A stretch of DNA of 53,522 nt. Origin: Armatimonadota bacterium (lineage in GTDB: Bacteria > Vulcanimicrobiota > JACPDS01 > JBDRKI01). Position numbers and translations under genes: made by a program. The notes under the pieces were generated by a model. That model was given only the letters and a program-made list of their open reading frames with translations. It was not told where the DNA came from and searched no databases. The stretch is taken from positions 1-53,522 of the forward strand of contig JBDRKI010000046.1 in the NCBI GenBank assembly GCA_043814095.1. Direction: 5' to 3'. Every line of letters begins with the position of its first letter. Positions within the stretch are counted from its first letter, which is position 1. Below are positions 4,597 to 34,091 of this stretch, one piece after another.

Positions 4597-4662
4597 GTTA
4601 ACAAAAAATTAACAAATTGTTAACATTTTGGTAACAAATAACGCCCGTATATTGGTTATAAT
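4597..4662 (+). promoter_or_regulatory. Four TTAACA-like boxes (11-bp period) plus -10 TATAAT; putative OmpR/PhoB-family activated promoter
   Basis: GTTAACA 4597, ATTAACA 4608, GTTAACA 4619, GGTAACA 4630; TATAAT at 4657; GGAGG RBS before ATG 4696. Confidence 0.8.
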
Positions 4663-4695
4663 TAATATATAAGACAAATTACTTCGGAGGGATTT

Positions 4696-6285
4696 ATGAG
4701 TTTAGAAATCACACCCCGCACGGCGCCCCAAGACAATAACGGCGAACCTGTAGGCGGAATTAAAATAGTCCCAAGAAACAATGTAGGCGGAATTAAAATA
4801 GTCCCAAGAAAAAAAACAGACAACAATCACAATAAAAATAATGAAGGAGGAGCGGAAAAAACGGCTCCGGCAAAAAAGCCGCTGGTAAATCCTAATTATC
4901 CCATACCGGACAACCGCATCACAGGTCCGCTTTCGCTTGATTCATACCCCAGACTGGTTGAAATAGACGAAAATCTGGGCGATTTTTTAAACCAATTCTT
5001 CTTATCAAAATACAGTATTTATCCCGATAATGAAGGTAAAATAAAACATATATTCATGGAATATTCAAAATATGAAACAGGATGTTCTCACAGCTCTGGC
5101 GAGCTTGACGCACATAAGGCTATCCTGTTAAATACAGATGAAAACGTGAAAATCTCTTTTCTAGTAAAAAATAACGAAGACGAAGAAGTTTTGCAAAAAC
5201 TTATTAAAGAAGCCGGCATAAAAAATCCTGACAGGATAGAAATAATAATTACCGGCAAAACTCCCCGGGGATGGGCGCGCGATCCCGCCGTAGCAGTTGA
5301 GGATGACGGCGGCGAAAACCATATACTCTTATTTGAACGCCATAGTCCGCTGAGAATTGAAGCTTACAGAAAAAACAATCCCGGATCCGCAGAACTGGAA
5401 GCAGAATTGTCAGAGGTAGCTCAAGACCGCGCCATGTTTACATTTATAAACGACAATAATATAAATGTCGCCGACATGAAAGAAGTCATAGGCATAGTCT
5501 TAGACGGCGGAAATATAATCCGCATTGATAAAGATATATTTATAGGCACAAGCGTTATATATAATACCTGCGAAACATTATGGCATAAATACCATAAAAA
5601 TCCCGCTTTTAACCGCTTCGTCGCCCAATATTACAAAGAGCTGACGGGTAAAGAAGTTCCGGACGGATATCAGACTATAGAGATACTAACCGTTTTAACG
5701 CCTAATATTATCGCGACTTTTTTCAACAGCAATGTCATCGTTATCGGGGAAGACAACCCTGAAACAGACAAAATAGAAAGCCAACCCACTTTTCACATTG
5801 ATATGCTTATGGGACCGGCAAAAAACTCCAACGGCGAAAATGTCGTTATGGTGGGAGATCCTAAGATGGCAAAGGAAATATTCGATAATTTATCCGACGA
5901 TGAAAAAGAAAAAAACGGCAGTCTTAAAATGCTGCTGGAAGATTATATAAACAAGACAAATATTAACGCGGAACAGAATAATTTCGACGCGGTTGCGGAT
6001 TATCTGAAAAAACAAGGATTTAAGGTGATGCGCACACCTTATCTGGAACATCTTCCGGGACTGCCTACAGTGGCGTTTACCAACAATTTAATTGAAGATT
6101 ATACCGACGAAAAAGGCAAGCATATAAAAAGAATTTTTCTGCCTCAATATAATATAGAACCGCTGGATAAAAAAGCGGCGGATATTTTCAGGAGTATGGA
6201 ATATGAAATTATATTTGTGGACTGCTCCAGTATAGGAAAATGCCAGGGATCGATCAGATGCAAAACACAGGTAATTAAGGAATAA
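4696..6285 (+). CDS. Pentein-fold (agmatine/peptidyl-arginine deiminase family) enzyme with a low-complexity N-terminal extension
   Basis: GWARDP, LDGGN, FHIDM and C-terminal GSIRCKTQ match the WxRD / GG / HxD / GGxxxCxT catalytic pattern of guanidino-group-modifying enzymes. Confidence 0.8.
   Translation: MSLEITPRTAPQDNNGEPVGGIKIVPRNNVGGIKIVPRKKTDNNHNKNNEGGAEKTAPAKKPLVNPNYPIPDNRITGPLSLDSYPRLVEIDENLGDFLNQFFLSKYSIYPDNEGKIKHIFMEYSKYETGCSHSSGELDAHKAILLNTDENVKISFLVKNNEDEEVLQKLIKEAGIKNPDRIEIIITGKTPRGWARDPAVAVEDDGGENHILLFERHSPLRIEAYRKNNPGSAELEAELSEVAQDRAMFTFINDNNINVADMKEVIGIVLDGGNIIRIDKDIFIGTSVIYNTCETLWHKYHKNPAFNRFVAQYYKELTGKEVPDGYQTIEILTVLTPNIIATFFNSNVIVIGEDNPETDKIESQPTFHIDMLMGPAKNSNGENVVMVGDPKMAKEIFDNLSDDEKEKNGSLKMLLEDYINKTNINAEQNNFDAVADYLKKQGFKVMRTPYLEHLPGLPTVAFTNNLIEDYTDEKGKHIKRIFLPQYNIEPLDKKAADIFRSMEYEIIFVDCSSIGKCQGSIRCKTQVIKE
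4749..4811 (+). repeat. In-frame tandem duplication (30-bp unit, 33-bp period) encoding VGGIKIVPR twice
   Basis: TGTAGGCGGAATTAAAATAGTCCCAAGAAA at 4749 and 4782. Confidence 0.95.
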
Positions 6286-6320
6286 TAAAATCAAAAAAAG
6301 CGTTATTAGATTTTTTAAAG

Positions 6321-6351
6321 AACCTTACACACCCGTTATTTTATACACCTT
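6321..6351 (+). repeat. 31-bp perfect direct repeat, copy 2 (overlaps the 3' end of the 6325..6585 gene)
   Basis: Identical to 4380-4410; encodes KVYKITGV-stop on the minus strand. Confidence 0.95.
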
Positions 6352-6585
6352 ATCATGCTCTCTTACGTGGTCGGGCACTTTAAAGCCGATATCGTCACCG
6401 GGCTTGGCTGTATCAAGCTTATGGTGCTCTGTTTCCAGTGATTCAATTGTTGTTATAAGATCCGTAGTATGGCCTTTAATATGAACCTTATCCCCTACCT
6501 TAAGCTCCCCTTCTTCTATGGTCATCGCGGCAACGCTTAAGTGGCTGAAATAATGAGCTATACTGCCTATATATTTTTCTTCCAT
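6325..6585 (-). CDS. Small translation-elongation-factor-like beta-barrel protein (stand-alone peptidase U32 C-terminal-type domain), 86 aa
   Basis: MEEKYIGSIAHYFSHLSVA...LKVGDKVHIKG.TTD...AKPGDDIGFKV...VREHDKVYK. ATG at 6585 with an AGGCGGTG RBS; the ORF-track extension to 6888 overlaps the GH13 gene. Confidence 0.8.
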   Translation of the reverse strand: MEEKYIGSIAHYFSHLSVAAMTIEEGELKVGDKVHIKGHTTDLITTIESLETEHHKLDTAKPGDDIGFKVPDHVREHDKVYKITGV

Positions 6586-6693
6586 ATTATTCACCGCCTT
6601 TCCTGTAATAAATAATTCTATATTATAATAATTTATCCCTGTAGGAACTGTCCCTAAAGGGGTTAAAAAATTATTACAGAAAACATATTTATT

Positions 6694-8559: not shown

Positions 8560-8579
8560 AAAGAGGAATATTGTAATAT
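8551..8579 (+). promoter_or_regulatory. Sigma70-type promoter for the 8605 ORF and probably tRNA-Trp
   Basis: TTGACA (8551) - 17 bp - TAATAT (8574). Confidence 0.6.
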
Positions 8580-8604
8580 TTATTATATCTTTAACGGAGA
8601 AATT

Positions 8605-8832
8605 ATGAAAGATAAAGATTTTGCCATAATACTGGAATCTTTAAGAAGTGATTTTAGAATTTTTAAGGAAAGCTTAGATTTATTAAAAGAAACTACGGAT
8701 AAAAAATTTGAAACATTACAAACCGAAACCCATCAAATGAATCATTTTCTCCAAAATATGATGTCCGAGCATGAAAAATGGCTACAGGATCATGAGGTAA
8801 GAATAAGAGACGTTGAAAAGAAAATCGCGTAA
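8605..8832 (+). CDS. Small hypothetical coiled-coil protein
   Basis: 75-aa ORF with GGAG RBS and heptad-like pattern (HEVRIRDVEKK). Confidence 0.65.
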   Translation: MKDKDFAIILESLRSDFRIFKESLDLLKETTDKKFETLQTETHQMNHFLQNMMSEHEKWLQDHEVRIRDVEKKIA

Positions 8833-8853
8833 ATAAAAATTGGCGGAGTCAGT

Positions 8854-8928
8854 GGGCCAGTAGTTCAGTGGTAGAACGTCGGTCTCCAAAACCGAATGTC
8901 GTGGGTTCAAATCCTGCCTGGCCCGCCA
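8854..8928 (+). tRNA. tRNA-Trp (CCA)
   Basis: Acceptor stem GGGCCAG/CTGGCCC, anticodon arm TCGGT-CTCCAAA-ACCGA, T-loop TTCAAAT, encoded CCA end. Confidence 0.97.
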
Positions 8929-9404: not shown

Positions 9405-9460
9405 AAAACACTCCAAACAGTTTAGTTTGTAAAACATATTATAATTCTTTTTGCAATATA

Positions 9461-9488
9461 AAAAGCCCTGTTAAACAACAGAGCTTTT
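9461..9488. terminator. Intrinsic terminator hairpin downstream of the 9509..10072 gene
   Basis: AAAAGCCCTGTT-AAAC-AACAGAGCTTTT inverted repeat. Confidence 0.65.
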
Positions 9489-9508
9489 ATACAATCTGCT
9501 TTTTACTA

Positions 9509-10072
9509 TTATTCTTTAGCTGTTATCATTTCAAATAAAAGTTTCAGTACTATATCATCTTTTTTCTTAATGGCCGCGGCTACTTTATCCATGAAAAGAA
9601 TTTTCTCTTTTTCGGTTGAAGATTTTTTAATTTTGCCGTTTACGGTAATATATTTTTCTGAAGATATATTAAAGTATATTTTTTTAGTTCCATCTTTAAC
9701 CATGACATAATTACCGTTCGGGCTGTCAACTATACTTATCCCATCGCCGTTTGCTTTATCGGTAATGGTTTTAAACCACCATATTTCTTCCAGCATCTGT
9801 TTGGGAGAAACCTTCAGGGGGATTATTTTTCCGTCTTTTTTTATAAGCTTTGCCATATGGTTCACATACAGTATATACTGGGCATCTTCTTTATTATATA
9901 TAACTACATAGCCTGCCTCCGGGTCTTCAAAGCCCGCTCTTCCTTTAACTGATTCCATTATTTCATCAAACTCTTTAACGGTAAAGTCTGCTTCGGCTAC
10001 AAGCTTATCCTGTCTTTTTACTGAAGTTAAATTATTTAGTTGATAATTTCTTACCGGGATACTGCTGATCAT
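9509..10072 (-). CDS. Orphan protein (187 aa) under the TTAACA-box promoter
   Basis: ORF with GGAGG RBS before ATG 10072 (MISSIPVRNYQLNNL...); no motif recognised. Confidence 0.75.
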   Translation of the reverse strand: MISSIPVRNYQLNNLTSVKRQDKLVAEADFTVKEFDEIMESVKGRAGFEDPEAGYVVIYNKEDAQYILYVNHMAKLIKKDGKIIPLKVSPKQMLEEIWWFKTITDKANGDGISIVDSPNGNYVMVKDGTKKIYFNISSEKYITVNGKIKKSSTEKEKILFMDKVAAAIKKKDDIVLKLLFEMITAKE

Positions 10073-10115
10073 ATAATCCTCCAATACCTGTAATTATATA
10101 TATGATTATAAGGAA

Positions 10116-10181
10116 ATTATATCATAATATATAAAAATAATTGTTAACAAATTATTGCTAAATTGTTAACTTTTTGTTAAC
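10116..10181 (-). promoter_or_regulatory. Four TTAACA-like boxes (11-bp period) plus extended -10 TGnTATAAT
   Basis: On the minus strand: GTTAACA 10181, GTTAACA 10170, AGCAATA 10159, GTTAACA 10148; TGA-TATAAT with the hexamer starting at 10121. Confidence 0.8.
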
Positions 10182-10292
10182 AAAACCTCCCTTATAACTT
10201 TATAATAAAACATATTATAATAAAAAAAGGAGTTGAAAACCGTATATAGAAGGTATTTCTGGCTCAAAATATCATAAAAAGGGGTATGTTTT

Positions 10293-14044: not shown

Positions 14045-14368
14045 ATGGATATAAGAAATATAAAAGGGGCACCTAAATACGGGGATATAAAAAAGTATTT
14101 TAAACAGTTAAAAAAGGCTTATCAGAAGCTGACAGAAAAACTAGAAGGCAAACCCTTGACCCCTAAACAAAGAAAAGAAGTAGATAAAACTTTAGCTAAA
14201 ATCGAAAAAGGACTTGAAAAAATACAGGGTTTTGAAAATTATAAAGGGGGAAAAGAAAAATCCCCTGTGGGAAGAAATCTCTTGGTAGAGCTTCTCCAGG
14301 ATTATCTAGAATTACTCTTTTATGTCGCCAGTGACAAGAAAAAGCAAACTGCTAACAGAAAAAAATAA
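14045..14368 (+). CDS. Lys-rich helical hypothetical protein
   Basis: 107-aa ORF with AGGAGG RBS, followed by a hairpin. Confidence 0.7.
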   Translation: MDIRNIKGAPKYGDIKKYFKQLKKAYQKLTEKLEGKPLTPKQRKEVDKTLAKIEKGLEKIQGFENYKGGKEKSPVGRNLLVELLQDYLELLFYVASDKKKQTANRKK

Positions 14369-14778: not shown

Positions 14779-14867
14779 TGGTGCCGAAGGCCGGGGTCGA
14801 ACCGGCATGGATGTTGCCACCCGCAGGATTTTAAGTCCTGTGCGTCTACCAATTCCGCCACTTCGGC
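14779..14867 (-). tRNA. tRNA-Leu (TAA)
   Basis: Acceptor stem GCCGAAG/CTTCGGC, anticodon arm CAGGA-CTTAAAA-TCCTG, long variable arm, GTTCGA T-loop, ACCA end. Confidence 0.97.
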
Positions 14868-17226: not shown

Positions 17227-17292
17227 GTTAACAAATTTTTAACATTTTGTTAACATTTTGGCAATAAATATTAAACTGGATTATGATATGAT
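17227..17292 (+). promoter_or_regulatory. Four TTAACA-like boxes (11-bp period) plus extended -10 TGnTATGAT
   Basis: GTTAACA 17227, TTTAACA 17238, GTTAACA 17249, GGCAATA 17260; TGA-TATGAT with the hexamer at 17287. Confidence 0.8.
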
Positions 17293-17331: not shown

Positions 17332-17895
17332 ATGGGAAAAATTGGAAAATTTCGCCAAACAGTAACTGGAACTGATAAAGCAGTGAAAATTCCTAAAAAA
17401 TTGAGCCCGGAAGATGCAAAGGCGCTTAAAGCAATCTTTATGAATGTTGCAGGTGAACTCGGGTTAGGTGACGGAGCAAGACAAAAGATTCTTAATGGTA
17501 TTGATGAGATGACAATAGGAGAGAAAGATTTAAGTGTAACTGCAACTAATATAAAAGAGTCTGCAGGAAAACCTTCAAAACCGGCAGTTATTAAAGGCGG
17601 TAAATCCGGAACAATCGAAGAAATTTTTGTAAAAGGTATTAATAGGTTAGATGAAGCAGAACTAAGAAGGCTTAAAGTTGAGTTTATGAATATTGCTAAT
17701 GAACATGGTTTGAGTGATAAATCAAAAACAAAAATACTTAATCTTATTGACGAGACAATGGCAAAGGCGCCTAAAATTAAAGGCACAGCAACAAAGCCTC
17801 CTACAGGCCGCCAGATGAGAAGACCCGAACTTAAGGTTGATGCTGACGGTAAGTTAATAAGGTTGTTCAGAAGAGCAGCCCGCTGTTTTAAATAG
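17332..17895 (+). CDS. Lys-rich orphan protein with two copies of a ~37-aa helical repeat
   Basis: GGAGG RBS; LK..FMN.A.E.GL....+.KILN.IDE occurs twice. Confidence 0.75.
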   Translation: MGKIGKFRQTVTGTDKAVKIPKKLSPEDAKALKAIFMNVAGELGLGDGARQKILNGIDEMTIGEKDLSVTATNIKESAGKPSKPAVIKGGKSGTIEEIFVKGINRLDEAELRRLKVEFMNIANEHGLSDKSKTKILNLIDETMAKAPKIKGTATKPPTGRQMRRPELKVDADGKLIRLFRRAARCFK

Positions 17896-17933: not shown

Positions 17934-18131
17934 ATGGGAACAACAGCAGGAAGAATAAGCACAATAGCTTCTGTAAAAACCACATCTGCAAAGAAAACAA
18001 GAGCAGTAAAAACAAAAAAGACTACATTGCAGAAATTTAAAGAACTTGCAGAAAAAATCATTAATCATTTAAACGAAAAAATCGTAGAACATGCAAAAGA
18101 TATTATAGATTCACCTGTAAATAAAATGTAA
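17934..18131 (+). CDS. Small peptide (65 aa): Thr/Lys-rich N-terminus and amphipathic helix
   Basis: GGAGG RBS; co-oriented directly after the 17332 gene. Confidence 0.65.
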   Translation: MGTTAGRISTIASVKTTSAKKTRAVKTKKTTLQKFKELAEKIINHLNEKIVEHAKDIIDSPVNKM

Positions 18132-20125: not shown

Positions 20126-20134
20126 AAATATCTC

Positions 20135-22132: not shown

Positions 22133-23024
22133 TATTTAACTCCGTTTCCAGTTCTTTAATCCTTTTCAAAGCGGCATCCAGATAAACTTTAAGATGCGGA
22201 TCTGAAGCACATTTGTTAAAGAAAATTATATAATTATCAAGAGCTTCTTTTTTATTCCCTTTATAATCATACACAACGGCTTTATTGTAATATGTAAGGT
22301 AGTAATCGGGCTGAATAGATACGGCCTTATCAAGATATTTTAAAGCTGTATCAAACCTGCCTGTTTTTAAAAAAAACATGGCCGCATCATTAATATATTC
22401 AACATTAGCAGAATCATATAATTTCTCATAACAGCCGTCTGCTTTTTTTAAATCATTAACGCTCAGGTAATACCACCCCATCCTGTCCCTGTAAGCTGAT
22501 ATAAGATCCAGGATGTCTTTATCTTTAGTTACTATTCCGGTATCTATATGCATTACAGACCCGGGATCAAACCCCGGTTTAAACTCCCCGCCTTTTTTTA
22601 GTACTTTGTAAATTATCCCGAAAGGCACAAGCTTGTATTCAGAATCTTTATCAAACTGAAAAATATATGTAAAATATACCGGGTATTTACCGTAATTTTC
22701 ATTAACCGATTTATTTATAAGATCCGTACATTCTTTCTCACATAATTTGCCGCATCTGGGATTAAGAATTTTTATATCCTTGCGGTAATTCTCTTTTTTC
22801 TGCAAACTGAGCATATGCTCCGCAACGGGTCCCTTTTCTACAAAAAGAACGGCATCTTTATCCGTTAAATCCATCATGCTTCCGGTATAATCATTTAAAA
22901 AGCTTTTTTTGATCAAATAATCCTTATAATATCCCGTATAGAATATGTAAAATGCGGTTAAAAGAAAACATATTAATAGAAAAAATATTATAAAATAATG
23001 ATTTTTAATATTTTTCCCTATCAC
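22125..23024 (-). CDS. Short paralog: single TM anchor, extracytoplasmic domain and TPR, without the DUF2723 membrane domain (paralog 6)
   Basis: Aligns to the C-terminal half of its neighbours (MMDL.DKDAV.F, ENYRKDIK, ENYGKYPVYF, YKLVPFG, TPR); no HPPGYP. Confidence 0.8.
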   Translation of the reverse strand: MIGKNIKNHYFIIFFLLICFLLTAFYIFYTGYYKDYLIKKSFLNDYTGSMMDLTDKDAVLFVEKGPVAEHMLSLQKKENYRKDIKILNPRCGKLCEKECTDLINKSVNENYGKYPVYFTYIFQFDKDSEYKLVPFGIIYKVLKKGGEFKPGFDPGSVMHIDTGIVTKDKDILDLISAYRDRMGWYYLSVNDLKKADGCYEKLYDSANVEYINDAAMFFLKTGRFDTALKYLDKAVSIQPDYYLTYYNKAVVYDYKGNKKEALDNYIIFFNKCASDPHLKVYLDAALKRIKELETELNNG

Positions 23025-23035
23025 GACAGCTCCCC

Positions 23036-25075
23036 TTATTTAAAATCTTTTATCCCCAGATCCTTTTTCAATATTTTTATTCTTTTCTCCGCAAATTTAG
23101 TAGATTTTGTATAAAGAAGCTCCCCTTCGGTTTTAGTTAAAAAAGTAATATAATTTTTCAGTGCTTCTTTTTTATTGTCCGTAATATCATAACCTATTGC
23201 CATATTGTAATATGAAAGCGGATAATCAGGATCAAGCCGGATTGATTTATTAAAACATTTGAATGCCATATCAAAATCGCCTATCTTAAGGAAAAATCCG
23301 CCCGCGTTCGCCAGGGCATTTGCCCCTTTATATTTATAAACCTCATCATAACATTCCCTTGTTTTTTCAATATTTCCCTGATTAGCGTAATATATAGCCA
23401 GCATATCCCAGTAACTTGAAAGTATTTTCTCAATATCAAAATCTTTATATACCCCATCCCCTAAGTTGTGCAATTTAATCTTACTCAAAGGATCAAAAGA
23501 AGGTTCAATTTTATCTCCTTTCTTCTGAACCCTGAATATAAGGCCGAACGGCACAAGTTCATATTTTGAATCAGGCCCCAGATAAAAATCATAAAGAAAA
23601 TATATGGGACGTTTGCCGTAGTTCTCGTCTATTATTTCTGTATAAACCTTTCTCCTTACATTTTCGCGCTCTTCCTTTGTAAAAGTGCCGAATAAAAAGT
23701 CCTCGCCTAAATACTCATCTGAAAGAGCCCCTATAAATTCATACATCTTGACATCTTTCCTATATTCTTCAACCTGCTGCATATACAATATACCAAAAGC
23801 AAGATGGTCTCCCTTAACAAAGACAATCGCGTCACGCTCCAGAAGATCCATATGACTTTTCAGGAAATCATACACATAATAATTCCTGCTCAAATCATTT
23901 TTATAATAATTAACGCCTATCTGCATAACCGCTAAAAGTAAAATTGCTATTGTAAGCACCCATTTCCATAAAGAAGAATTTTTAAAGAATTTTAAAGATA
24001 TGTCCCATAAATAAGAGAGGCCGTATCCTATATAGCACGCAAAAATAAGGTAGCACGGAAAATAATACACTGACATAACCTCAGCGCGCATTATGCTGTA
24101 AGGGTGTTCCTGTATGATGATAAGAAATATACTGTTAAAAATAAATATGCCTAATAAGAGCACCGCGTATTTTACATCTTTTATAAAAGAGCGTAAAGAA
24201 CCTATAACTCCTATAACTACTACTGGTATCCAGAACTGTTCTTTTAACTGGATTAAAAATTGCTTTATAAACTGCAATTTTACATCTATCCCGTACCTCC
24301 CTATATCCACATCATTATACATCCTGCGCTGGATATGCAGCATAAACCGCTTAAATGTTTCAGGATTACCCCAGTCAAGGGCAGGGTTAAACTTTGAAGC
24401 AATAGGCAGGTATAAATAAGGCAGTAACCCTACTATAAATAAGCCTACACACCCCAGAACAAGCTTTAAATCCTTTAAAACCCGCCATTTTGTCCATATT
24501 ATGAATATTAAAAAGAAAGGACCTGCTAAAGTCATAAAATGGTGGTTTGTTAAGCTTAGACCGTACATAAACGAGAAAATATAAAGATATTTATTTTTAT
24601 CGGTATCACGCCAGAGACAGAGAAGATAAAGACATACAGATAAAAAGAATATATTTAATGTATATACCTCAGCTACAACAGACTGAGACCATAAATCAGG
24701 AGAAAAACAGAAAAGCATTGCCGAGACAAATGAAATTTCTGTCTTTCTTGTAATCCTGTAAATTAATAGAAATAAAAATAATCCTGCTAATGCCGCCCAG
24801 AAACCTGACATGAAGTTAATACGCCATGCAATACTCCCCAGAGGGATATAACTGAAAACCTTCCCTACTATACTGTATAAAGGATACCCCGGAGGATGAA
24901 GCACCCCGCATGTATATGCGCCTGCAATAAACTCACCGTTGTCTTCGGTATAAAGTGTCGGACATGTTGTAAGAGCGTATATTATAAGCGGAAGAATAAA
25001 CGAGAAACACGCCGTTATTATAAAATAAATACTGCTCTTTTCTTTTCCTGTTTTTTCTAATTTTATTTCTTCCAT
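23036..25075 (-). CDS. DUF2723/TMEM260-like GT-C glycosyltransferase with TPR (paralog 5)
   Basis: EDNGEF, HPPGYP, AEVY, DWGNP, TPR. Confidence 0.88.
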   Translation of the reverse strand: MEEIKLEKTGKEKSSIYFIITACFSFILPLIIYALTTCPTLYTEDNGEFIAGAYTCGVLHPPGYPLYSIVGKVFSYIPLGSIAWRINFMSGFWAALAGLFLFLLIYRITRKTEISFVSAMLFCFSPDLWSQSVVAEVYTLNIFFLSVCLYLLCLWRDTDKNKYLYIFSFMYGLSLTNHHFMTLAGPFFLIFIIWTKWRVLKDLKLVLGCVGLFIVGLLPYLYLPIASKFNPALDWGNPETFKRFMLHIQRRMYNDVDIGRYGIDVKLQFIKQFLIQLKEQFWIPVVVIGVIGSLRSFIKDVKYAVLLLGIFIFNSIFLIIIQEHPYSIMRAEVMSVYYFPCYLIFACYIGYGLSYLWDISLKFFKNSSLWKWVLTIAILLLAVMQIGVNYYKNDLSRNYYVYDFLKSHMDLLERDAIVFVKGDHLAFGILYMQQVEEYRKDVKMYEFIGALSDEYLGEDFLFGTFTKEERENVRRKVYTEIIDENYGKRPIYFLYDFYLGPDSKYELVPFGLIFRVQKKGDKIEPSFDPLSKIKLHNLGDGVYKDFDIEKILSSYWDMLAIYYANQGNIEKTRECYDEVYKYKGANALANAGGFFLKIGDFDMAFKCFNKSIRLDPDYPLSYYNMAIGYDITDNKKEALKNYITFLTKTEGELLYTKSTKFAEKRIKILKKDLGIKDFK

Positions 25076-25084
25076 AAAGTTCTC

Positions 25085-27148
25085 CTAATAGGATTGTTTA
25101 TTAATATGTTCTCTTAACTGCGGTATTCTTTTTGCCACCCATTCTATGTATTCAACATTATAAGGTATGCCCGACTTGCTTTTATTGCAATTAGCGGCAA
25201 ATTTAAGATAATTCACAAGGGCATCTTTTGCTTCCCCTTTATAATCATGATAAATGCCCAGATTGTAATATATAAGGTAATGCCCGGGATCTATAGACCG
25301 GGCTTTATCAAGACAGTTGAAAGATTTATCAAACTCCTTTATATTTAAAAAGAAGGCTCCCGCGTTATTTAAAAAGAAGGGGTTATCGTATTTATAAAGC
25401 TCAGAATAATAAAGAGCCGCGTTTTCCATATCCGAAACACTTACATAATAACGGGCCATCCTGTCCAGAAAAGCAGATAAGAGCTGGCGCACATAATAAT
25501 CTTTGTATATCTTATCATTAAAAAGATTGCGGACATGTATCTTTTCAATAGGCACTGTTTTAGGATCTACGGGCTCGTCTCTCCTTACCGCTTTAAATAC
25601 AGGTCCGTAATAATCAAGGAGATATTTTGAATCTGCACTGAAGTAAAAAGGATCAGTAAAATACATTGAACGCCCCGGATAACCTTCATCCATCATCCTT
25701 GTATAGACTTCCCGCTGGCGTTCAGTAAGCTTTTTCTCTGTTGTAGGGTTAAATATTATATCCTCCCCCAGATACCCGTATGATACATAACCCACACCGT
25801 CAAACATTTTTACATCTTTTCTGTACCCTTCAACTTCCTGGAGGTACAGTATATTAAAAATAGGGTTGTCCCCCTGGGCTATCACATAAGAATCTTTATC
25901 CATTACGGCTAAAGAGCTTTTAGTAATATCATAAATATAGTAATTATTGCTTAAGTCGTTTTTATGGTAGTTAAACAAAATCTGTGTAAGGACAAGAAGA
26001 AGTATAAAAACGGTAAAAACGGGTTTTACAAAACGGTATCGTACTTCTTTATCCTTAAGAATATCCCATATAAATAAAAGGCCGGAACCTATATAACAGG
26101 TAAATACCAGGTAACAGGGCAGGTAAAAAACAGCCATGACTTCCGCTATCTCCCTGCTGAATACCCTTTGCTGGAGTACGGGGAATATGGCTCCTGTGGA
26201 TATGAAAATTATAAATAGAAGAGTTGAGAACTTAAAATTTTTCTTAAAAAGATTCCATAACCCCGCAAACCCTATAATTATCGATAAAATACCGAACTGT
26301 CCCGCAAACTGGGATAAAAACGCTTTCATATACTCCCATTTCTCGGCAAACCCGTGAGGCCCCAGCCCCAGCGGGGCATAAGTTTTACGCTGGATATGCA
26401 AAAGAAAAGATTTCAGTGTCTCGGGATTGCCCCAGTCCAGTACGGGGTTAAACTTAGACGCTATGGGTATGTACAGATAAGGGAGAAGCCCCGCTATAAA
26501 AAGACCTATAGCCCCGAAAACAAGACCCGGCCTTTTAAGCAGTTTCCAGTCATTCCAGAGAACAAACAAGATAAAGAATAACCCCGCCACAAACATAAAA
26601 TGATGGTTGGTTATGCTCAAGCCGTAAACAAATGAAAGTATGTAAATGTATTTATCTTCTCTTTTTTCCTGCCACAGGTGAAGAAGATAAAGGCATCCCG
26701 CAAGGAAAAGCATATTCAAGGAATAAACTTCCGCGGCAACGCACTGCGACCAGAAAAGCGGCGAGAAAGAAAAGAGCATGGCAGACCCGAAAGAGATAAC
26801 TTCATTACGGGTAATCCTGTATATAAGGAGAAAGAGTATAAAAGCGGCAGCAGCGCCGAAAACAGCCGTCATGAAATTAACCCGCCAGGCAATGCCACCC
26901 AAAGGAATATATGTAAAGATCTTCCCTATCATGCAGTAAAGAGGGTACCCCGGAGGGTGTGTAACTCCTAATGTATAAGCTGCTGTTATAAATTCCCCTG
27001 AATCTTCAACATAGCTTGTAGGGCATAAAGTAAATACATAAAGTATAAGCGGGAGCAGAAATGATAATGCCGCTAATATTTTAAAATATATACTTTTTTT
27101 TTCTTTTCCTGTTTCTTCCGTAGCTTTATCCGATTTTACTTCTTCCAT
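25085..27148 (-). CDS. DUF2723/TMEM260-like GT-C glycosyltransferase with TPR (paralog 4)
   Basis: EDSGEF, HPPGYP, AEVY, DWGNP, TPR. Confidence 0.88.
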   Translation of the reverse strand: MEEVKSDKATEETGKEKKSIYFKILAALSFLLPLILYVFTLCPTSYVEDSGEFITAAYTLGVTHPPGYPLYCMIGKIFTYIPLGGIAWRVNFMTAVFGAAAAFILFLLIYRITRNEVISFGSAMLFSFSPLFWSQCVAAEVYSLNMLFLAGCLYLLHLWQEKREDKYIYILSFVYGLSITNHHFMFVAGLFFILFVLWNDWKLLKRPGLVFGAIGLFIAGLLPYLYIPIASKFNPVLDWGNPETLKSFLLHIQRKTYAPLGLGPHGFAEKWEYMKAFLSQFAGQFGILSIIIGFAGLWNLFKKNFKFSTLLFIIFISTGAIFPVLQQRVFSREIAEVMAVFYLPCYLVFTCYIGSGLLFIWDILKDKEVRYRFVKPVFTVFILLLVLTQILFNYHKNDLSNNYYIYDITKSSLAVMDKDSYVIAQGDNPIFNILYLQEVEGYRKDVKMFDGVGYVSYGYLGEDIIFNPTTEKKLTERQREVYTRMMDEGYPGRSMYFTDPFYFSADSKYLLDYYGPVFKAVRRDEPVDPKTVPIEKIHVRNLFNDKIYKDYYVRQLLSAFLDRMARYYVSVSDMENAALYYSELYKYDNPFFLNNAGAFFLNIKEFDKSFNCLDKARSIDPGHYLIYYNLGIYHDYKGEAKDALVNYLKFAANCNKSKSGIPYNVEYIEWVAKRIPQLREHINKQSY

Positions 27149-27163
27149 AAAATTCTCCAGACT

Positions 27164-29185
27164 TTAGTTTTTTATATTAAGCTCTTTTTTAATCTCATTA
27201 ATTCTTTTTCTTGCGCTTTGTTTATTATCATCATCAAAAGGATAATTGGCATAAAAATAAGCATAATTTTTCAAAGCCTCTTTTTTCTCGCCTGCTATAT
27301 CATAAAGAAAACCTTTATGGTAGTATGCAAGGTAATAATCCGGTTCAATACTAACAGCTCTATTAAGATATTTTAATGCGGTATTTAAGTCCCCTGCATT
27401 TATAAAAAATATTGCCGCATTATCAAGTATACCGGGCCTTGAGTATTTATAGACTCTTTCATAACAGTATTTTGCCTGTTTAAGATCAGATACACTCACA
27501 TAATAATGGCCCATCATATCCCAGAAAACACTCATCATATCTTCAATATTGGCATCTTCATAAATATTATCATTTATATTGCGCAGGTAGATTTTATCTA
27601 CGGGTATGGTTTTAGGATCTAAGCTCTCCCCTTTTTTTACGGCCTTATAAATTATCCCGTAATTAGCAAAATAATAATCAGAATCCTGACCCAGATCAAA
27701 AACATAATTTATATACACGGGTTTTCTGCCGTAGTTTTCGGCTATTATCTGGGTATAAACTTTTCTTCTTCTTTCTTCCAGCTCAGAAGGCGTCATTTTC
27801 CCGTAAAGAAAATCCTTCCCGAGGTATTCACCGGACAAAGTTCCCACATGATCATACATTTTTATATCAGGCCGGTAGTTCTCAACCTGCTGGAAGTAAA
27901 GTATGCCGAATATCACATAATCCACCCTTGCGATAATAATACCGTCTTCATCTACCATATCCATGGTGCTTTTCACGAAATCATGGACATAATAATTCTT
28001 GCTTAAGTCATTTTTGTAATAATTGCTTATTACGGGAATCAGTACCAGTAAGACTACAATAGCTTTAAAGCATATTTTAAATAAACGGTTATCCCTGCTG
28101 AATCTTACAACCAGCTCATATAAATAAGAGAGGCCGTATCCTATATAACAGGCAAATACAAGGTAACAGGGGATATAAAATATGGAAAAAACATCTGCAC
28201 GTATTGTAGTATACTGGGATTGATTAATAAAAATAAACAAAAAACTGTTAAAAATAAAGATAATAAACAGTAAAACCCAGATTTTTATATTCCTTTTTAA
28301 AAGATATAAAAAACCACCAAACCCGATAATCAATAATAAAGCATTAAACTGACCTGACAGCTCCGCAAAAAACGATTTTACAAAATCCAGCTTTGTATCC
28401 CATCCGATATACTTAAAATACTCAAATCCCAACGGAGCATACATTTTACGGGTAATATGGTTAACTATTCCCGAGATTGTTTCGGGATTTCCCCAGTCCA
28501 TTACCGGATTAAATTTTGAAGCTATAGGCAGATAAAGATACGGAGTTAAGCCCAATATAAAAAGAGCGGTACAGCCGGTTAAAAATCCCAGCCTTTTAAG
28601 AAGCTTCCAGTCACACCATAATACAAAAAGAATAAAAACAGGGATGGACATAAGCATTGTGTGATGATTAGTTAAGCTAAGCCCGCACAATAACGAAAGC
28701 AGGTAAAGATATTTATCTTTTCTGTTCTCATTCCATATTTGAAGAAGATAAAGACAGACAGATAAAAAGAATATGTTTAAGGTATACACCTCTGCCATAA
28801 CCGACTGGGACCAGAATGTATAGCTGAAACAGAAAAGCATGGTTGAAGCAAATGAAACTTCAATTTTTCTTGTAAGCCGGAAAATAAGCAAAAAGAGGAA
28901 AAAAGCAGCCAGTGCCGCCCAGAAAGCAGACATAAAATTAACACGCCATGCAATATTTCCCACAGGGATAAAGGTAAAAACCTTACCTAAAATGCAGTAA
29001 ATAGGATATCCGGGCGGGTGCAGTATGCCTAACTTATCGGCGCATGTGATAAATTCAGCGCAGTCTTCGGCGTAAATCGTGGGGCATAAGGTCAGGGTAT
29101 ATATTATTAAAGGTATAAGGAATGATAAAAAAGCAACTGCTTTAAAATAAATACCCTTATTTATCTCTTTATTATTTTCCACCAT
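27164..29185 (-). CDS. DUF2723/TMEM260-like GT-C glycosyltransferase with TPR (paralog 3)
   Basis: EDCAEF, HPPGYP, AEVY, DWGNP, TPR. Confidence 0.88.
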   Translation of the reverse strand: MVENNKEINKGIYFKAVAFLSFLIPLIIYTLTLCPTIYAEDCAEFITCADKLGILHPPGYPIYCILGKVFTFIPVGNIAWRVNFMSAFWAALAAFFLFLLIFRLTRKIEVSFASTMLFCFSYTFWSQSVMAEVYTLNIFFLSVCLYLLQIWNENRKDKYLYLLSLLCGLSLTNHHTMLMSIPVFILFVLWCDWKLLKRLGFLTGCTALFILGLTPYLYLPIASKFNPVMDWGNPETISGIVNHITRKMYAPLGFEYFKYIGWDTKLDFVKSFFAELSGQFNALLLIIGFGGFLYLLKRNIKIWVLLFIIFIFNSFLFIFINQSQYTTIRADVFSIFYIPCYLVFACYIGYGLSYLYELVVRFSRDNRLFKICFKAIVVLLVLIPVISNYYKNDLSKNYYVHDFVKSTMDMVDEDGIIIARVDYVIFGILYFQQVENYRPDIKMYDHVGTLSGEYLGKDFLYGKMTPSELEERRRKVYTQIIAENYGRKPVYINYVFDLGQDSDYYFANYGIIYKAVKKGESLDPKTIPVDKIYLRNINDNIYEDANIEDMMSVFWDMMGHYYVSVSDLKQAKYCYERVYKYSRPGILDNAAIFFINAGDLNTALKYLNRAVSIEPDYYLAYYHKGFLYDIAGEKKEALKNYAYFYANYPFDDDNKQSARKRINEIKKELNIKN

Positions 29186-29194
29186 ATAACACCC

Positions 29195-31184
29195 CTACTT
29201 TTTATTAAGCTCAGCTATTCTTTCCCTGGCGATATTTATTAAATAACTCCCGGGCTCTGCTTTATCGCAAAGGATAACATAATATTTAAGCGCGCTTTTA
29301 TTATCCCCCAGCATATCATATGCCGCGGCGAGATTAAAAACCGTAAACGGGTAATCAGGATCAATGGAATACGCTTTTTCAAGGAATTTCAAAGCCATCT
29401 GTGTCTTACCCGCGTTTAAAAGGCACCCCCCCCGCATTACTCAGGGCTTTGTAATCATCATATTTATAAACCTGTTCAGCTGCTTTAATCAGGTTCTCCG
29501 TATCAGAGATGCTGTAGTAATAAAAAACAAGGGTATCCCAGTAAAAATCCAGCAGACTGACTGTATCATAATCTTTATATATACTATCATCATTAAGATT
29601 GCGCAGTTTCATTTTATCTTCAGGCATAAAAGGCGGCTTCCACCCAAAACCTTTTCTAACAACGCGGAATACTATGCCATAGGGCTGGAGATAATATTTT
29701 GAATTTCTGCCCAGATTAAAATTATATGAAAAATATATGGGGCATTTATTATAATTCTCATCTATAATCCTGTTATATGCCACCCTCCTTATAACATCTC
29801 TCTGTTCCTCACTGAGTTTTGAAAAAGCAAAATCTTTACCGAATATATCTCCCGAGACGCACCCCGTGTCTTCATACATCTTAACGTCGCCCCTGTATCC
29901 TTCAACCTGCTGGAGGTAAAGCAAGTTAAAAACTATGCTGTCTCCTTTAGAAAAAAGAATTGCGCCTTTATCCGTAAGATCTAAAACGCTTTTTGCGTAA
30001 TCATAAGCAACATAATTTCTGCTTAAATCATTCTCATGGTAATTATGCCATATGGGAATTACCGCTATCAATAAAATAATTACACTAATTATAAATTTAA
30101 GTACTCTATTCTTATCAATAACCTTACCCAGTAAATCCCATATATAAGAAAGGCCGTATCCTATATAGCATGCAAAAACAAAGTAACACGGGAAATAATA
30201 TACACTCATTGTCACAACGCGCAGTAAAGAATACGGGTATTCCTGTGTTACTGCTATTACAAACCCGTTAAATATAATTATCCCAAGTGAAAGAACCAGA
30301 AATTTTATATCCTTTACAACTAACCTTAAAAAACCAAGCACCCCTATAACAATAAAGACAATACCGAATTGATCAAGAAAACCGGAAAGAAAAGCTTTTA
30401 CAAATTTCAGCTTAACATCAATACCGTAACTGCCGATACCCACATCACTGTAAGTTTTGCGCTGGATATGAGCTAAGAATCTTTCAAGTGTCTCCGGATT
30501 CCCCCAATCCATAACAGGGTTAAATTTAGATGCAATAGGCAGGTATAAATAAGGCAGTAAGCCCACTATAAAAAGCCCTATACAGCCCAGAACAAGCTTT
30601 AAGTCCTTTAAAATCCGCCATTTTGTCCATATTATGAATATAAGGAAAAAAGGGGCGGCTATAGCCATAAAATGGTGGTTAGTTAAGCTTAAACCGTACA
30701 TGAAAGCAAAAAGGTATAGGAACTTATTCTTATCAGATTCACGCCAGACTTGTAGTAAATACATACACACAGACAAAAAGAATATGTTTAATGTATATAC
30801 TTCAGCAACAACAGCTTGAGACCAGAATACCGGTGAAAAACAGAAAAGCATGGCTGATAAAAATGAAATCTCTATTTTTCTTGTAAGCCGGAAAACAAGC
30901 AAAAAGAGGAAAAAAGCAGCCAGTGCCGCCCAGAAAGCAGACATGAAATTAACACGCCATGCGATACTGCCATACGGGATAAAGGTAAAAACCTTCCCTA
31001 AAATACAGTAAAGCGGGTACCCGGGCGGATGGACAATCCCGAGTGTATATGCGCCTGTAATAAATTCACCGCAGTCTTCCGCGTAGCTTACGGGACATAA
31101 AGTAAAGGTATATATTATTAACGGAAGCAGAAATGATACGGAAGCGATTATATTAAAATAAAGATTACTTATCTTTTCTTTCAT
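29195..31184 (-). pseudogene. DUF2723/TMEM260-like glycosyltransferase (paralog 2), frameshifted at a G8 tract just before the TPR (phase-variable or assembly error)
   Basis: ORFs 29406..31184 and 29195..29437 join into one paralog-length gene if the C8 run at 29426-29433 (G8 on the coding strand) is G7. Confidence 0.85.
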
Positions 31185-31188
31185 AATA

Positions 31189-33222
31189 TCATTTACCGTC
31201 CGGCTTTTTAGTCTTTTTTATCTCGTCACTTATCTGCTTTATTCTCTTCTTCCCTAATTTCACGTATTTAGCGTACCTGGCATCCCCTTTATACTTATCC
31301 AAAGACAAAACATAATATTTAAGAGCCCCTTTACTGTCGCCTTCAAGCTCATAAACAAGAGCTTTATTAAAGTATAAAGGGAAATAAGTCTGATCAATAG
31401 ACAATCCTTTATCAACATACTTTACCGCTTCTGCGGGGTTTTGGTTATTGATATAAAACGCGGCTGCGTTATTTAAAGAACAGTAATCCTCATACTTGTA
31501 AATCTGTTTATAACATTCTTCCGCTTTTTTCTTATCCCCTACCCTTAAATAATAAAATGCCATCATATCCCAGTATAAGGCGTACATTCTCTTAGTGTCA
31601 TAATCCTTATACATCTTATCATCATAAAGATTCCTGATATGTATCTTAGTTAAAGGATCAAAACTATCAACAACCTTCTCATCTTTTCTTACAACCTTAA
31701 AAACAGTACCGAAAGGAACAAGCCTGTACTTTGAGGAAGCGCCCAGATAAAAATCATAGTTAAAGTAAACAGGCCTCTTCCCGTAGTTTTCATCAATTAT
31801 TTTTTCTGCAACCTGCCTGCGCCTTTCTTCCTGCTGTAGTTCGGTAAGAGCCCCGAAGAGCATATCTTCCCCCAAGTATTCGCCCGTGATAGCGCCTGTA
31901 TTCTCATATATAGTTATATCAGGCCTGTGGTTCTCGCAGTATTTAAGATAAAACATACTGAATACCGGGGCATCTCCTTTAGCAAAAATAATTGCGTCAC
32001 GATCCATAAGATCCATGGAGCTTTTAACATAATCATAAACAAAATAATTATTGCTTAAATTATTCTGGTGATAATTATGCCATATAGGGATTACCGCTAT
32101 TAACAATACAACCACACTGACTACAACTTTAAACACCTTATTCTTATCAATAACCTTAGCTAACAAATTCCATATATAAGATAACCCGTATCCTATATAG
32201 CATGCAAAAACAAGATAACAGGGAAAATAATATACTGTCATTGTTCTTTCCCTTAATATGCTGTAAGGGTGTTCTTGAATGAATATAAGGAGAATGCTGT
32301 TAAATATAAATATCCCGAATGTCATAAACGTAAATTTTATATCTTTAAAAGCCATCTTTATAAATCCGAGCATACCTATAACAATAAAGACTATACCGAA
32401 CTGACCGAGAAACTCAAGCAAAAACCCCTTTATAAACATCCATTTAACATCTATGCCGAAACGGCCTAAAGCGACATCGCCATAGGTCTTCCTCTGTATA
32501 TGATCCAAGAACCTCCCCAGTGTCTCAGGATTACCCCAATCAATAACAGGATTAAATTTAGATGCAATAGGCAGGTATAAATAAGGTAGAAGCCCTGCTA
32601 TAAATAAACCTATACAGCCTAAAACAAGCTTTAAGTCCTTTAAAACCTGCCACTTTGTCCATATTATAAATATTATAAAGAAAGGAGCTGCCAGGGTCAT
32701 AAAATGGTGGTTAGTTAAACTTAAACCATACATAAAAGCAAATAAATAAAGGTACTTATTCTTATCAGATTCTCTCCATATTTGTAACAGATACATACAG
32801 ACAGATAAAAAGAATATATTCAACGTATATACTTCAGCAACAATTGACTGGGACCAGAATGCCGGTGAAAAACAGAAAAGCATGGCTGATGCGAATGAAA
32901 CTTCAATCTTTTTAGTTAACCTGTAAATTAATAAGAATAAAAAAAGCCCTGCCAGCGCCGCCCAGAAAGCAGACATAAAATTAACACGCCAGGCAATACT
33001 CCCCACCGGGATAAAGGTAAATACCTTGCCAAGCATGCTGTATAGTGGATAACCCGGAGGATGGAGAACACCTAATTTATATGCACCTGTAATAAACTCA
33101 CCGCAGTCCTCAGAATAAGTGGTAGGGCAAAGAGTGAATATATATACTATTAAAGGCAAAAGAAATGAAAAAACTGCTATTATTTTGAAATATAAGGTTT
33201 TATTCCCTGTATTATTATTCAT
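31189..33222 (-). CDS. DUF2723/TMEM260-like GT-C glycosyltransferase with TPR (paralog 1)
   Basis: EDCGEF, HPPGYP, AEVY, DWGNP, TPR; GGAGG RBS. Confidence 0.88.
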   Translation of the reverse strand: MNNNTGNKTLYFKIIAVFSFLLPLIVYIFTLCPTTYSEDCGEFITGAYKLGVLHPPGYPLYSMLGKVFTFIPVGSIAWRVNFMSAFWAALAGLFLFLLIYRLTKKIEVSFASAMLFCFSPAFWSQSIVAEVYTLNIFFLSVCMYLLQIWRESDKNKYLYLFAFMYGLSLTNHHFMTLAAPFFIIFIIWTKWQVLKDLKLVLGCIGLFIAGLLPYLYLPIASKFNPVIDWGNPETLGRFLDHIQRKTYGDVALGRFGIDVKWMFIKGFLLEFLGQFGIVFIVIGMLGFIKMAFKDIKFTFMTFGIFIFNSILLIFIQEHPYSILRERTMTVYYFPCYLVFACYIGYGLSYIWNLLAKVIDKNKVFKVVVSVVVLLIAVIPIWHNYHQNNLSNNYFVYDYVKSSMDLMDRDAIIFAKGDAPVFSMFYLKYCENHRPDITIYENTGAITGEYLGEDMLFGALTELQQEERRRQVAEKIIDENYGKRPVYFNYDFYLGASSKYRLVPFGTVFKVVRKDEKVVDSFDPLTKIHIRNLYDDKMYKDYDTKRMYALYWDMMAFYYLRVGDKKKAEECYKQIYKYEDYCSLNNAAAFYINNQNPAEAVKYVDKGLSIDQTYFPLYFNKALVYELEGDSKGALKYYVLSLDKYKGDARYAKYVKLGKKRIKQISDEIKKTKKPDGK

Positions 33223-33289
33223 AACCCCTCCACTCTATATGTAATATAATTTTACAAATATAAATAAAATCCTTGATTTTTACCCCTAA

Positions 33290-33321
33290 AAAAGCACCCC
33301 GGTAAATACCGGAGTGCTTTT
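33290..33321. terminator. Intrinsic terminator downstream of the TA operon
   Basis: AAAAGCACCCCGGT-AAAT-ACCGGAGTGCTTTT. Confidence 0.75.
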
Positions 33322-33410
33322 ATATATTCTACCAGTGACCTGCTTTTTCTTAACCGCAGGGACGGGTGTAAAAAACGGCATATTGCCGCGCCGCCCGCCT
33401 TCATTCTTCT

Positions 33411-33683
33411 TTAAAATCTTTTTAACAATTTTTCATAAACTGAACGGCGATGGCCTATCTTAAAAATAGTAATTATACTTTCTTTAATAATATAAATAAT
33501 TCTGTAACTGCCAACCTTTAATTTATAACAACTGGACAACGGAGCTCTCATCCTTTGTCCAAATTTTTCAGGATCCCGTAAAATCTTTTTCTCTATAATT
33601 TTAAATATATCTTTTTGGTTTTTTTTATCAATTTCCTGAAAATCTTCTTTTAATACTCTATGATCGTATATTCCCTTATACAT
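33411..33683 (-). CDS. relE: Type II toxin, RelE/ParE family
   Basis: 90 aa; ...DP..FG..M...L...YKLKVGSYRIIY.I....I.IFKIGHRRSVY. Confidence 0.9.
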   Translation of the reverse strand: MYKGIYDHRVLKEDFQEIDKKNQKDIFKIIEKKILRDPEKFGQRMRAPLSSCYKLKVGSYRIIYIIKESIITIFKIGHRRSVYEKLLKRF

Positions 33684-33684
33684 T

Positions 33685-33939
33685 TCAAAGTCCCAGCTTT
33701 TTCTTTATTTGTTCATGAGATAATGCTTTTTTAGGATCAAAAGTATTAAACCTCTCTAATGCCATCTCTCCTAGAACTTCGTCTTCTAACTCATCCAGCT
33801 GTTCTTTTGTTGCCTGTTTTTTAATAAGGTCTCTAACAAAAAGAGATATAGATATATGCAGTCTTTTTGCTTCCTGTTTTATCCAGTCATAAAGACTTGG
33901 TTCCAAAACCACCATTATTCTGGGATTTTTAGTAGACAT
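33685..33939 (-). CDS. Antitoxin, ribbon-helix-helix type
   Basis: MSTKNPRIMVVLEP..Y..IK..A....SIS..VRDLI, acidic C-terminus ending ALSHEQ; 1 bp upstream of the toxin. Confidence 0.85.
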   Translation of the reverse strand: MSTKNPRIMVVLEPSLYDWIKQEAKRLHISISLFVRDLIKKQATKEQLDELEDEVLGEMALERFNTFDPKKALSHEQIKKKLGL

Positions 33940-33949
33940 TTTTCACCTC

Positions 33950-34008
33950 GTTCATCAAAAGTGTTGAACCCCCGTTTATAGTGTAGCAAAAGTGTTGAAC
34001 TATGTCAA
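33950..34008 (-). promoter_or_regulatory. TA promoter with autoregulatory operator repeats
   Basis: TTGACA (34008-34003) - 17 bp - TACACT (33985-33980). The 14-bp repeat CAAAAGTGTTGAAC at 33956 and 33987 flanks the -10. Confidence 0.75.
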
Positions 34009-34025
34009 TAAATAAGGGATGGAAA

Positions 34026-34091
34026 GTTAACATTTTGTTAACATTTTGGCAATAATCTTGTAACAACCTTTAAACAGAATTATGTTATTAT
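34026..34091 (+). promoter_or_regulatory. Four TTAACA-like boxes (11-bp period) plus extended -10 TGnTATTAT
   Basis: GTTAACA 34026, GTTAACA 34037, GGCAATA 34048, TGTAACA 34059; TGT-TATTAT with the hexamer at 34086. Confidence 0.8.

Follow-up and report, generated by a model that had tools for sequence, protein, structure and literature searches.

We analysed a 53,522-nt stretch of DNA (the window), which is contig C46 (37.7% GC) of the 2.5-Mb source genome G000 (98.97% complete), and the tandem-repeat arrays that lie upstream of four of its genes. Promoters bearing such arrays are a real, phased and conserved signal, common to a filament-less export cluster and a large set of orphan genes. 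On the best reading of the sequence, they would make up a master regulon, in Eremiobacterota, that joins a flagellum-derived secretion system without filament to the cargo of that system.

Array promoters in the window and across the genome

All 16 boxes of the four arrays lie where a sequence-only reading of the window had placed them, at an exact 11-bp period, and at each locus a -10 hexamer starts 27 nt after box 4 as that reading had claimed (Table 1). Three of the four hexamers are extended by TGn, also as described, and array B has an additional TATAAT at +38. Two parts of the earlier description need rewording. The window arrays do have four boxes each, but TTAACA is present in only 11 of the 16 boxes; the repeat unit reads GTTAACA-W4, with boxes 3 and 4 drifting to GGCAATA-, TGTAACA- and GGTAACA-type words. 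The 27-nt offset is fixed within the window, whereas genome-wide it is one rung of an 11-bp ladder (16, 27 and 38 nt). Four TTAACA boxes with a fixed 27-nt offset are one class of a family of two- to four-box, 11-bp-phased promoters.

With a box matrix trained on the window's four sites, G000 yielded 183 raw matches (71 loci), and three locally shuffled genomes (100-nt windows) yielded 0, 0 and 0. After retraining, a 60-nt matrix found 88 loci against 0, 0 and 0 in the shuffles, and a model of two boxes with a phased -10 contributed 10 further sites (shuffles 0, 0 and 1 at 16 bits, 0 at 19 bits). The matrix scans thus bring the total to ~98 sites, in line with the expectation of many more sites genome-wide, and the shuffle counts of about zero speak against a motif no more frequent than in shuffled AT-rich DNA. 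At 85 of the 88 loci a same-strand gene lies 59–249 nt downstream, and by a rough count the array-headed units hold roughly 165 genes. An initial list of targets with groES and other housekeeping genes was discarded, as these were artefacts of wrong automatic orientation at 6 sites.

The arrays are polar, with an A-tract upstream, perfect boxes 1 and 2 and degenerate boxes 3 and 4, and the box is nearly invariant at AAYA. Of 68 sites, 20, 24 and 10 have their best -10 at 16, 27 and 38 nt after box 4, respectively (54 of 68 in phase). In the 16 and 27 classes the boxes overlie the -35 position, which matches TTGACA at only 0–3 of 6 bases, so these promoters would need an activator; the 38 class has a partial -35 (3–5 of 6). 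Such a ladder would be expected from one activator bound on one helical face and contacting polymerase over or just upstream of the -35. Direct repeats of ~11 bp upstream of genes, in helical phase with the -10 and with a weak or absent -35, are consistent with the OmpR/PhoB-like, activator-type promoter that the sequence-only reading had proposed.

An AAGG-type word lies upstream of the array in 36 of the 68 sites. At many sites, and prominently at two-box sites, a TAAGG(G)-type element stands 14–8 nt upstream of box 1; it resembles a TATAAT-like word on the opposite strand and may mark a second factor or a divergent promoter. Back-to-back divergent arrays occur at G000:C122:8688-8794 and G000:C8:15151-15158.

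An array-headed export cluster and its conservation

Five arrays head units of a flagellum-type system in G000 (Table 1), in which the export gate, ATPase, MS-ring, C-ring and rod components are present. The FlhA protein scores 792.9 bits over the flagellar cut-off of 772.1 and FliI (clade 2) 675.3 over 629.8, while the hrcV (SctV) model gives 612.5, under its cut-off of 692.25; the SctN model is passed narrowly (611.7 over 604.75), with the FliI score higher. Flagellin, MotA/ExbB, the hook cap FlgD and FlgH were not found in G000. Its four sigma-70 matches were assigned by reading to sigA, a sigH-like factor and two ECF factors, and FliA (sigma-28) was not found among them.

The cluster also differs from injectisomes in other respects. 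Injectisome regulons (HrpX/HrpB, ExsA) place the apparatus and dispersed effectors under one regulator, the effectors having polar N-terminal export signals, and Myxococcus reportedly has a ‘needleless’ type III secretion system (T3SS*), non-flagellar and without a needle. The G000 apparatus keeps FlgB, FlgC, FliE, FlgF/G and FliM/N/O, scores as FlhA and not as SctV, has no secretin in the cluster, and has a candidate regulator that is OmpR-type, not AraC-type. A closer likeness is found in non-flagellated Lysobacter enzymogenes OH11, which, in the available portions of PMC7688988, uses flagellar export genes without functional flagellin to export proteins acting on other microbes. There the genes are a remnant flagellar set of one genus, as far as those portions go, whereas here they form a separate, conserved cluster with its own promoter signal and a conserved family of small helical proteins.

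At the end of the cluster, an array heads a gene for an 80-residue protein (C54:993-1232) that has matches in 19 of 40 relatives, often in multiple copies. This protein leads to a helical family of ~78 residues that counts 361 representatives at E 0.001, most of them proteins of varying length that carry it as a C-terminal helix. Scanning 119 of 150 listed members gave nothing informative in Pfam or PDB, Atlas scores were all <0.8, and the predicted model is one long helix. An array lies directly upstream of the family gene in only 2 of 18 copies in relatives. As a guess, the 80-residue protein could be a needle, filament or tip. A TIR domain is present in 9 of the 119 scanned members (P0123-P0272, alignment A2).

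Across the phylum, FlgB has a match in 82 of 121 genomes and flagellin in 43 of 121. In family f5 the counts are 18 of 19 for FlgB and 0 of 19 for flagellin, and in f11 they are 5 of 6 and 0 of 6. Gene order in the export cluster is conserved across the extent of the stretches compared, and some relatives carry the cluster alongside a second, flagellar set. When named genomes were searched with FlhA, most matches were the ordinary flagellar protein (35–49% identity); the best reached 61% (L014), in a genome where no two-box pattern was found. In a family search of 40 relatives MotA was not separable from ExbB/TolQ, and hence the search is uninformative on stators there.

The array is conserved together with the cluster. 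Using a footprint matrix trained on G000 sites with the flgB site left out, 47 of 49 relatives' flgB loci scored above all 30 of their dinucleotide shuffles, and the array-to--10 geometry conserved at flgB is +16: TAnnnT stands at exactly that distance in 44 of the relatives' array-bearing loci, in genomes of 30–65% GC. The two negative loci are L140, with an apparent 1-nt shift, and L137, a flagellar-cluster copy. Among 20 other, weaker-matching flgB copies that served as controls, 19 have no array, many of these controls lying in clusters near flgD; the other (L359) has an array, matches best among the flgB copies of its genome and looks like the export type. As for the motif itself, the strict four-box pattern occurs 51 times in G000 and 0–3 times in each of 40 relatives, so G000 is extreme; 34 of 121 genomes of the phylum have the two-box pattern, for which reversed controls are near zero. 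In five relatives, 54 two-box loci were read (60 minus 6 strand duplicates); a -10 was called in 50, of which 41 fall on a ladder of 5/6, 16/17, 27/28 and 38/39 nt, and three of the targets are homologs of the C55 unit (Table 1). Because kin are not independent, these counts measure depth of conservation, not repeated origin.

Orphan targets and the genes of the window

The orphan character that had been noted for the genes downstream of the window arrays extends to the genome: 60 of 77 first genes (those outside the window and contig C54) have no Pfam match at E 1e-4, compared with 13 of 39 random operon-first controls (p = 5e-6; of 40 controls, one was removed as a target, and 2 of the 39 kept also turned out to be targets). 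Among the 17 first genes with a match are those for three caspase-like proteases, an M90/lethal-factor-like metallopeptidase domain, peptidases of the M16 and S9 families, proteins with HEAT or TPR repeats, a lipoprotein of family GH114, an HD protein and an SLBB protein.

Hydrophobic N-termini are present in 10 of 85 first genes. In the other 75, residues 2–26 contain on average 8.0 N/S/T/Q compared with 5.2 in 392 controls (p = 9e-18; the controls are the operon-first genes, out of 605, without hydrophobic N-termini) and with 5.4 in residues 51–75 of the same proteins (p = 1e-8). The same N-terminal stretch is poor in D/E and L against both the controls and the proteins' own residues 51–75, and targets in the five relatives have the same N/S/T/Q bias (7.1 vs 5.6, n = 44, p = 9e-4). 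Type III export signals typically show this enrichment in N/S/T/Q and scarcity of D/E and L. By composition, the targets thus resemble type III substrates: polar, acid-poor at the N-terminus and without a signal peptide. The suggestion of an ‘effector arsenal’, made from the window sequence, has become the favoured interpretation, since arrays stand before the operons of the export apparatus as well and the targets have an export-like N-terminal bias.

Some array-headed genes deserve separate mention. A 493-residue protein (G000:C27:11090-12568; L172) matches M90 and lethal-factor-like metallopeptidase families in its C-terminal part. Five array-headed paralogs on contigs C56, C127, C48, C90 and C8 (L180, L188, L189, L212 and L225) share an N-terminal domain; all run off contig ends, and one has >3,885 residues with M16 peptidase domains.

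Within the window, array A precedes a 529-residue protein resembling the peptidyl-arginine/agmatine deiminases (Table 1), with a low-complexity, disordered-looking N-terminal extension. It keeps the catalytic-type motifs WARD193, DGGN270, HID367 and GSIRC518, its match to PF04371 is weak (E 4e-5, under the cut-off), and Atlas feature and structure matches lead to PAD_porph clusters, the closest structural cluster being commonest in Vulcanimicrobiota. One other homolog was found (57%). A metatranscriptome, available as contigs only, holds 7% of the words, in scattered, short, near-identical pieces without start, strand or level; two such pieces fall inside the deiminase gene. The targets of arrays B, C and D are orphans with no paralog found in G000. 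The 65-residue peptide gene at locus C, probably co-transcribed with the 187-residue gene before it, resembles both peptides of locus D, and within G000 these three related cationic amphipathic peptides of 64–73 residues are confined to the window. The 73-residue peptide has a hydrophobic moment of 0.76, where the 99th percentile of 1000 random 66-residue windows is 0.69.

Table 1. Array promoters, their target genes and the array-headed export units. Positions without a contig refer to the window.
Feature	Position	Strand	Description
Array A	4597..4636	+	4 boxes, 11-bp period: GTTAACA, ATTAACA, GTTAACA, GGTAACA
-10 of array A	4657..4662	+	TATAAT, without TGn, 27 nt after box 4
Target of array A	4696..6285	+	529-residue peptidyl-arginine/agmatine deiminase-like (pentein) protein
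Target of array B	9509..10072	-	187-residue orphan, N-terminus N/S/T/Q-rich (9/25)
-10 of array B	10116..10121	-	TATAAT, extended (TGA-TATAAT), 27 nt after box 4
Array B	10142..10181	-	4 boxes: GTTAACA, GTTAACA, AGCAATA, GTTAACA
TAAGGG element, array B	10189..10194	-	upstream of array
Array C	17227..17266	+	4 boxes: GTTAACA, TTTAACA, GTTAACA, GGCAATA
-10 of array C	17287..17292	+	TATGAT, extended (TGA-TATGAT), +27
Target of array C	17332..17895	+	187-residue basic orphan (net +16), strongly amphipathic end segment
Peptide gene, locus C	17934..18131	+	65-residue cationic amphipathic peptide, after array C target
TAAGGG element, array D	34013..34018	+	upstream of array
Array D	34026..34065	+	4 boxes: GTTAACA, GTTAACA, GGCAATA, TGTAACA
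-10 of array D	34086..34091	+	TATTAT, extended (TGT-TATTAT), +27
Target of array D	34126..34860	+	244-residue basic orphan (net +18), N/S/T/Q-rich N-terminus
Peptide gene, locus D	34888..35082	+	64-residue cationic amphipathic peptide
Peptide gene, locus D	35216..35437	+	73-residue amphipathic peptide, paralog of the 64-residue one
Export unit	C54:23730		flgB-flgC-fliEFGHIJ-slt-fliK
Export unit	C54:15575		FlgE/G-like gene with fliMNOPQR-flhB-flhA
Two further downstream units	C54:7323 and C54:1344		met-zincin, then two small helical proteins
Export unit	C55:15601		fliK-like, flhB-like, flgF, flgG, flgJ-like

The window has further features. Orphan genes that have export-like N-termini and are not preceded by an array lie at 979-4380 and 14045-14368; the promoter of the former may sit outside the window. 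Divergent from array B, the segment 10293-13414 encodes a fusion of an acetokinase-family (butyrate kinase-like) protein with an ABC substrate-binding-type domain and, after it, another kinase that stands alone. Between arrays C and D lies a tandem block (18134-33222, minus strand) of seven near-full-length genes and one partial gene for TMEM260-like membrane glycosyltransferases with TPR tails, an assignment for which one copy was scanned; the copy at 29195-31184 is split in two frames. A ParE toxin and a small antitoxin-like gene (33411-33939, minus strand) have a 14-bp direct repeat twice just upstream, a likely operator. There are also tRNA-Trp(cca) at 8854-8928 and tRNA-Leu(taa) at 14779-14867.

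The candidate regulator and rival readings

G000 encodes three OmpR-family proteins, on contigs C36, C20 and C97. The C36 protein precedes pstSCAB-phoU and has no close match in 70 relatives; for the C20 protein, 4 of 40 relatives have a close match. At the pst unit there are separate repeats, CTTCACA at an 11-bp period, and next to it a PhoB/PhoR-like pair of its own; the repeats at G000:C36:20904 (+) are a probable Pho box before a porin-like gene and the pst operon, and a second copy at G000:C41:27545 (-) precedes an apparent sensor gene. The C97 protein (G000:C97:38444) is a 231-residue response regulator, with a receiver and a winged helix, that adjoins a 357-residue soluble-looking kinase followed by a conserved third gene. 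Given the soluble-looking kinase, the signal to this pair may be internal or relayed.

Orthologs of the C97 protein (61–77% identity) occur in 44 of 47 genomes of cluster-bearing families, the other three being 62–86% complete, one with a partial 70% match, and in 0 of 23 genomes of families f12, f17 and f20. In all 12 loci that were read, its recognition helix has the same sequence. The best NCBIfam match is YycF/WalR (279.7 bits, cut-off 340), no curated family cut-off is passed, and the neighbouring kinase scores 219.1 against a WalK cut-off of 725 and lacks the membrane part. The DNA-binding domain is nearest to RegX3 (E 2e-27), then WalR (4e-23) and SaeR (3e-19). Most of its homologs carry the label Eremiobacterota, Vulcanimicrobiota or Ca. 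Bruticola and a few that of Armatimonadetes or Chloroflexi, and source databases call them ‘PhoP’. From these labels and the deiminase cluster, we take the phylum to be Eremiobacterota (Vulcanimicrobiota).

Several OmpR-family systems resemble the one proposed here. The boxes of Bacillus subtilis PhoP and WalR and the Escherichia coli Pho box are tandem 11-bp repeats over the -35 region, and the +16 class resembles the Pho-box geometry; unlike in those systems, the phosphate operon is not a target, and C97 passes no WalR or PhoB curated cut-off. PmrA and CpxR also belong to the OmpR family, with motifs that differ from that of G000. In Legionella pneumophila they co-control secretion machine components and many substrates, according to the accessible text of PMC5289986, as proposed for G000; their machine is type IV (Icm/Dot), whereas that of G000 is flagellum-derived and its kinase soluble-looking. 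The OmpR-family SaeR of Staphylococcus aureus binds GTTAA-N6-GTTAA at promoters with one, 1.5 or two sites (2–4 half-sites), and its targets are exported proteins, as far as PMC5083920 was available. Boxes 1 and 2 of most G000 arrays fit that sequence at the same 11-bp period. The G000 box is longer (GTTAACA, with the near-invariant AAYA), the C97 DNA-binding domain is nearer to RegX3 and WalR and the protein is not a SaeR ortholog, and the regulon of ~98 sites includes a type III-like apparatus.

The model that we favour is as follows. The arrays would be sites of one conserved OmpR/PhoB-family activator, most likely C97, of which one or two head-to-tail dimers would bind the GTTAACA half-sites on one helix face and recruit sigma-70 RNA polymerase to promoters with a -10 but no proper -35. 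The regulator would co-induce a type III export apparatus (rod, MS-ring, C-ring and export gate, without filament or motor) and ~75 dispersed genes whose products resemble its cargo, and the regulon would add ~10 signal-peptide or membrane-anchored surface proteins. That C97 activates these promoters and that the orphans are delivered cargo, taken jointly, we regard as reasonably probable. We infer the identity of the regulator, activation over repression, actual secretion and any predatory or parasitic role.

Several points weigh against this model. C97 is the most likely array binder by elimination among the OmpR-family proteins only, the agreement of its range with that of the motif comes from one split between clades and would hold for any clade-specific gene, and no array lies upstream of the regulator gene in 12 of 12 loci. 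No L-ring was found, nor any secretin linked to the cluster, the four secretin matches all being on other contigs, so the model does not account for a route through the outer membrane. The ten hydrophobic N-termini among the first genes are not export-like, nor are the HD protein and the SLBB protein, which is ComEA-like, among the targets, nor a target in one relative that is similar to a G000 gene read as murC. Sites C64:3309, C102:57593 and C8:15158 are weak and probably false or misoriented. Six site orientations were set by hand before retraining; the retrained matrix returned the same orientation for 67 of 68 sites, the 68th being the same locus one box off.

One rival reading is a WalR/CtrA-like master regulator of envelope and life-cycle phase (e.g. 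attack or attachment), with the export cluster as one client and most orphans as phase-specific cytoplasmic or surface proteins. The YycF/WalR match and very high conservation of C97 are in keeping with it, as are the TGTTAA-N5-TGTTAA words within the arrays, which fit the WalR consensus, and the lipoproteins, SLBB protein and likely mur operon (in one relative) among the targets. We consider it unlikely, given that both YycF and WalK cut-offs are missed, the kinase has no membrane part, and, of 85 first genes, the 75 without a hydrophobic N-terminus carry an export-like bias against an internal control. A different clade-specific protein that reads the near-palindrome TGTTAACA, possibly a repressor or silencer over the -35 region, is less probable still. 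GTTAAC is a palindrome, many arrays give a score on either strand, the -35 position is overlaid by boxes in the 16 and 27 classes, the extra TAAGG element suggests a second protein, and the C97 gene is not autoregulated; the arrays are nevertheless polar, the poor -35 of those two classes calls for an activator, and an 11-bp direct repeat is a hallmark of the OmpR family in the accessible parts of PMC6222199 and PMC5083920.

An ordinary Pho regulon might be suspected from the ‘PhoP’ labels of C97 homologs, the likeness of the box to B. subtilis PhoP repeats and a phosphodiester glycosidase among the targets. Genome context largely refutes it, and we give it very little weight: no array was found in G000 at pstSCAB-phoU or a second PstS-like gene, the 85 array-headed first genes do not include a pst or pho gene, and the pst unit has its own repeats and its own regulatory pair, which has no close match in the 70 relatives. 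The sequence-only reading was right that the targets are not phosphate genes. That the repeats arose by chance, or are a family without regulatory role in AT-rich DNA, has a negligible probability; the intergenic DNA of G000 is very AT-rich, but composition-matched shuffles gave zero matches, nearly all sites precede a same-strand gene at close range, and position and -10 spacing are conserved in genomes of up to 65% GC.

Beyond the favoured model lies a wider scenario, which we put forward tentatively and at somewhat short of even chances. A large branch of Eremiobacterota may have turned a second flagellar basal body into a dedicated delivery machine, apparently independent of known injectisomes, with its own filament or tip family of ~78 residues and a single OmpR-type master. 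The array would then be a barcode of the effectors in each uncultured genome (here ~75 mostly unknown proteins, including the deiminase, proteases and amphipathic peptides), in a predatory or parasitic life. In the portions available, PMC9259500 proposes predation in the phylum, lists T3SS-like matches as ‘putative, no decision’ and does not describe the export system, and the word ‘secretion’ is absent from those of PMC9758169. In the literature on Eremiobacterota/Vulcanimicrobiota we found no description of the regulon or the cluster, most subscription papers lying outside the search.

Injectisomes are thought to derive from flagella. If the model is true, a conserved, filament-less, motor-less export cluster with a regulon of its own, spread across many families of a phylum that is almost wholly uncultured, would be a second, living flagellum-to-injectisome transition. 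The promoter signal, specific (zero shuffle matches) and portable over 30–65% GC, would provide lists of candidate cargo without homology, and with them candidate functions for hundreds of orphan genes. It would also suggest concretely how marine members of the phylum, which the accessible text of PMC9259500 proposes to be predators, could practise predation.

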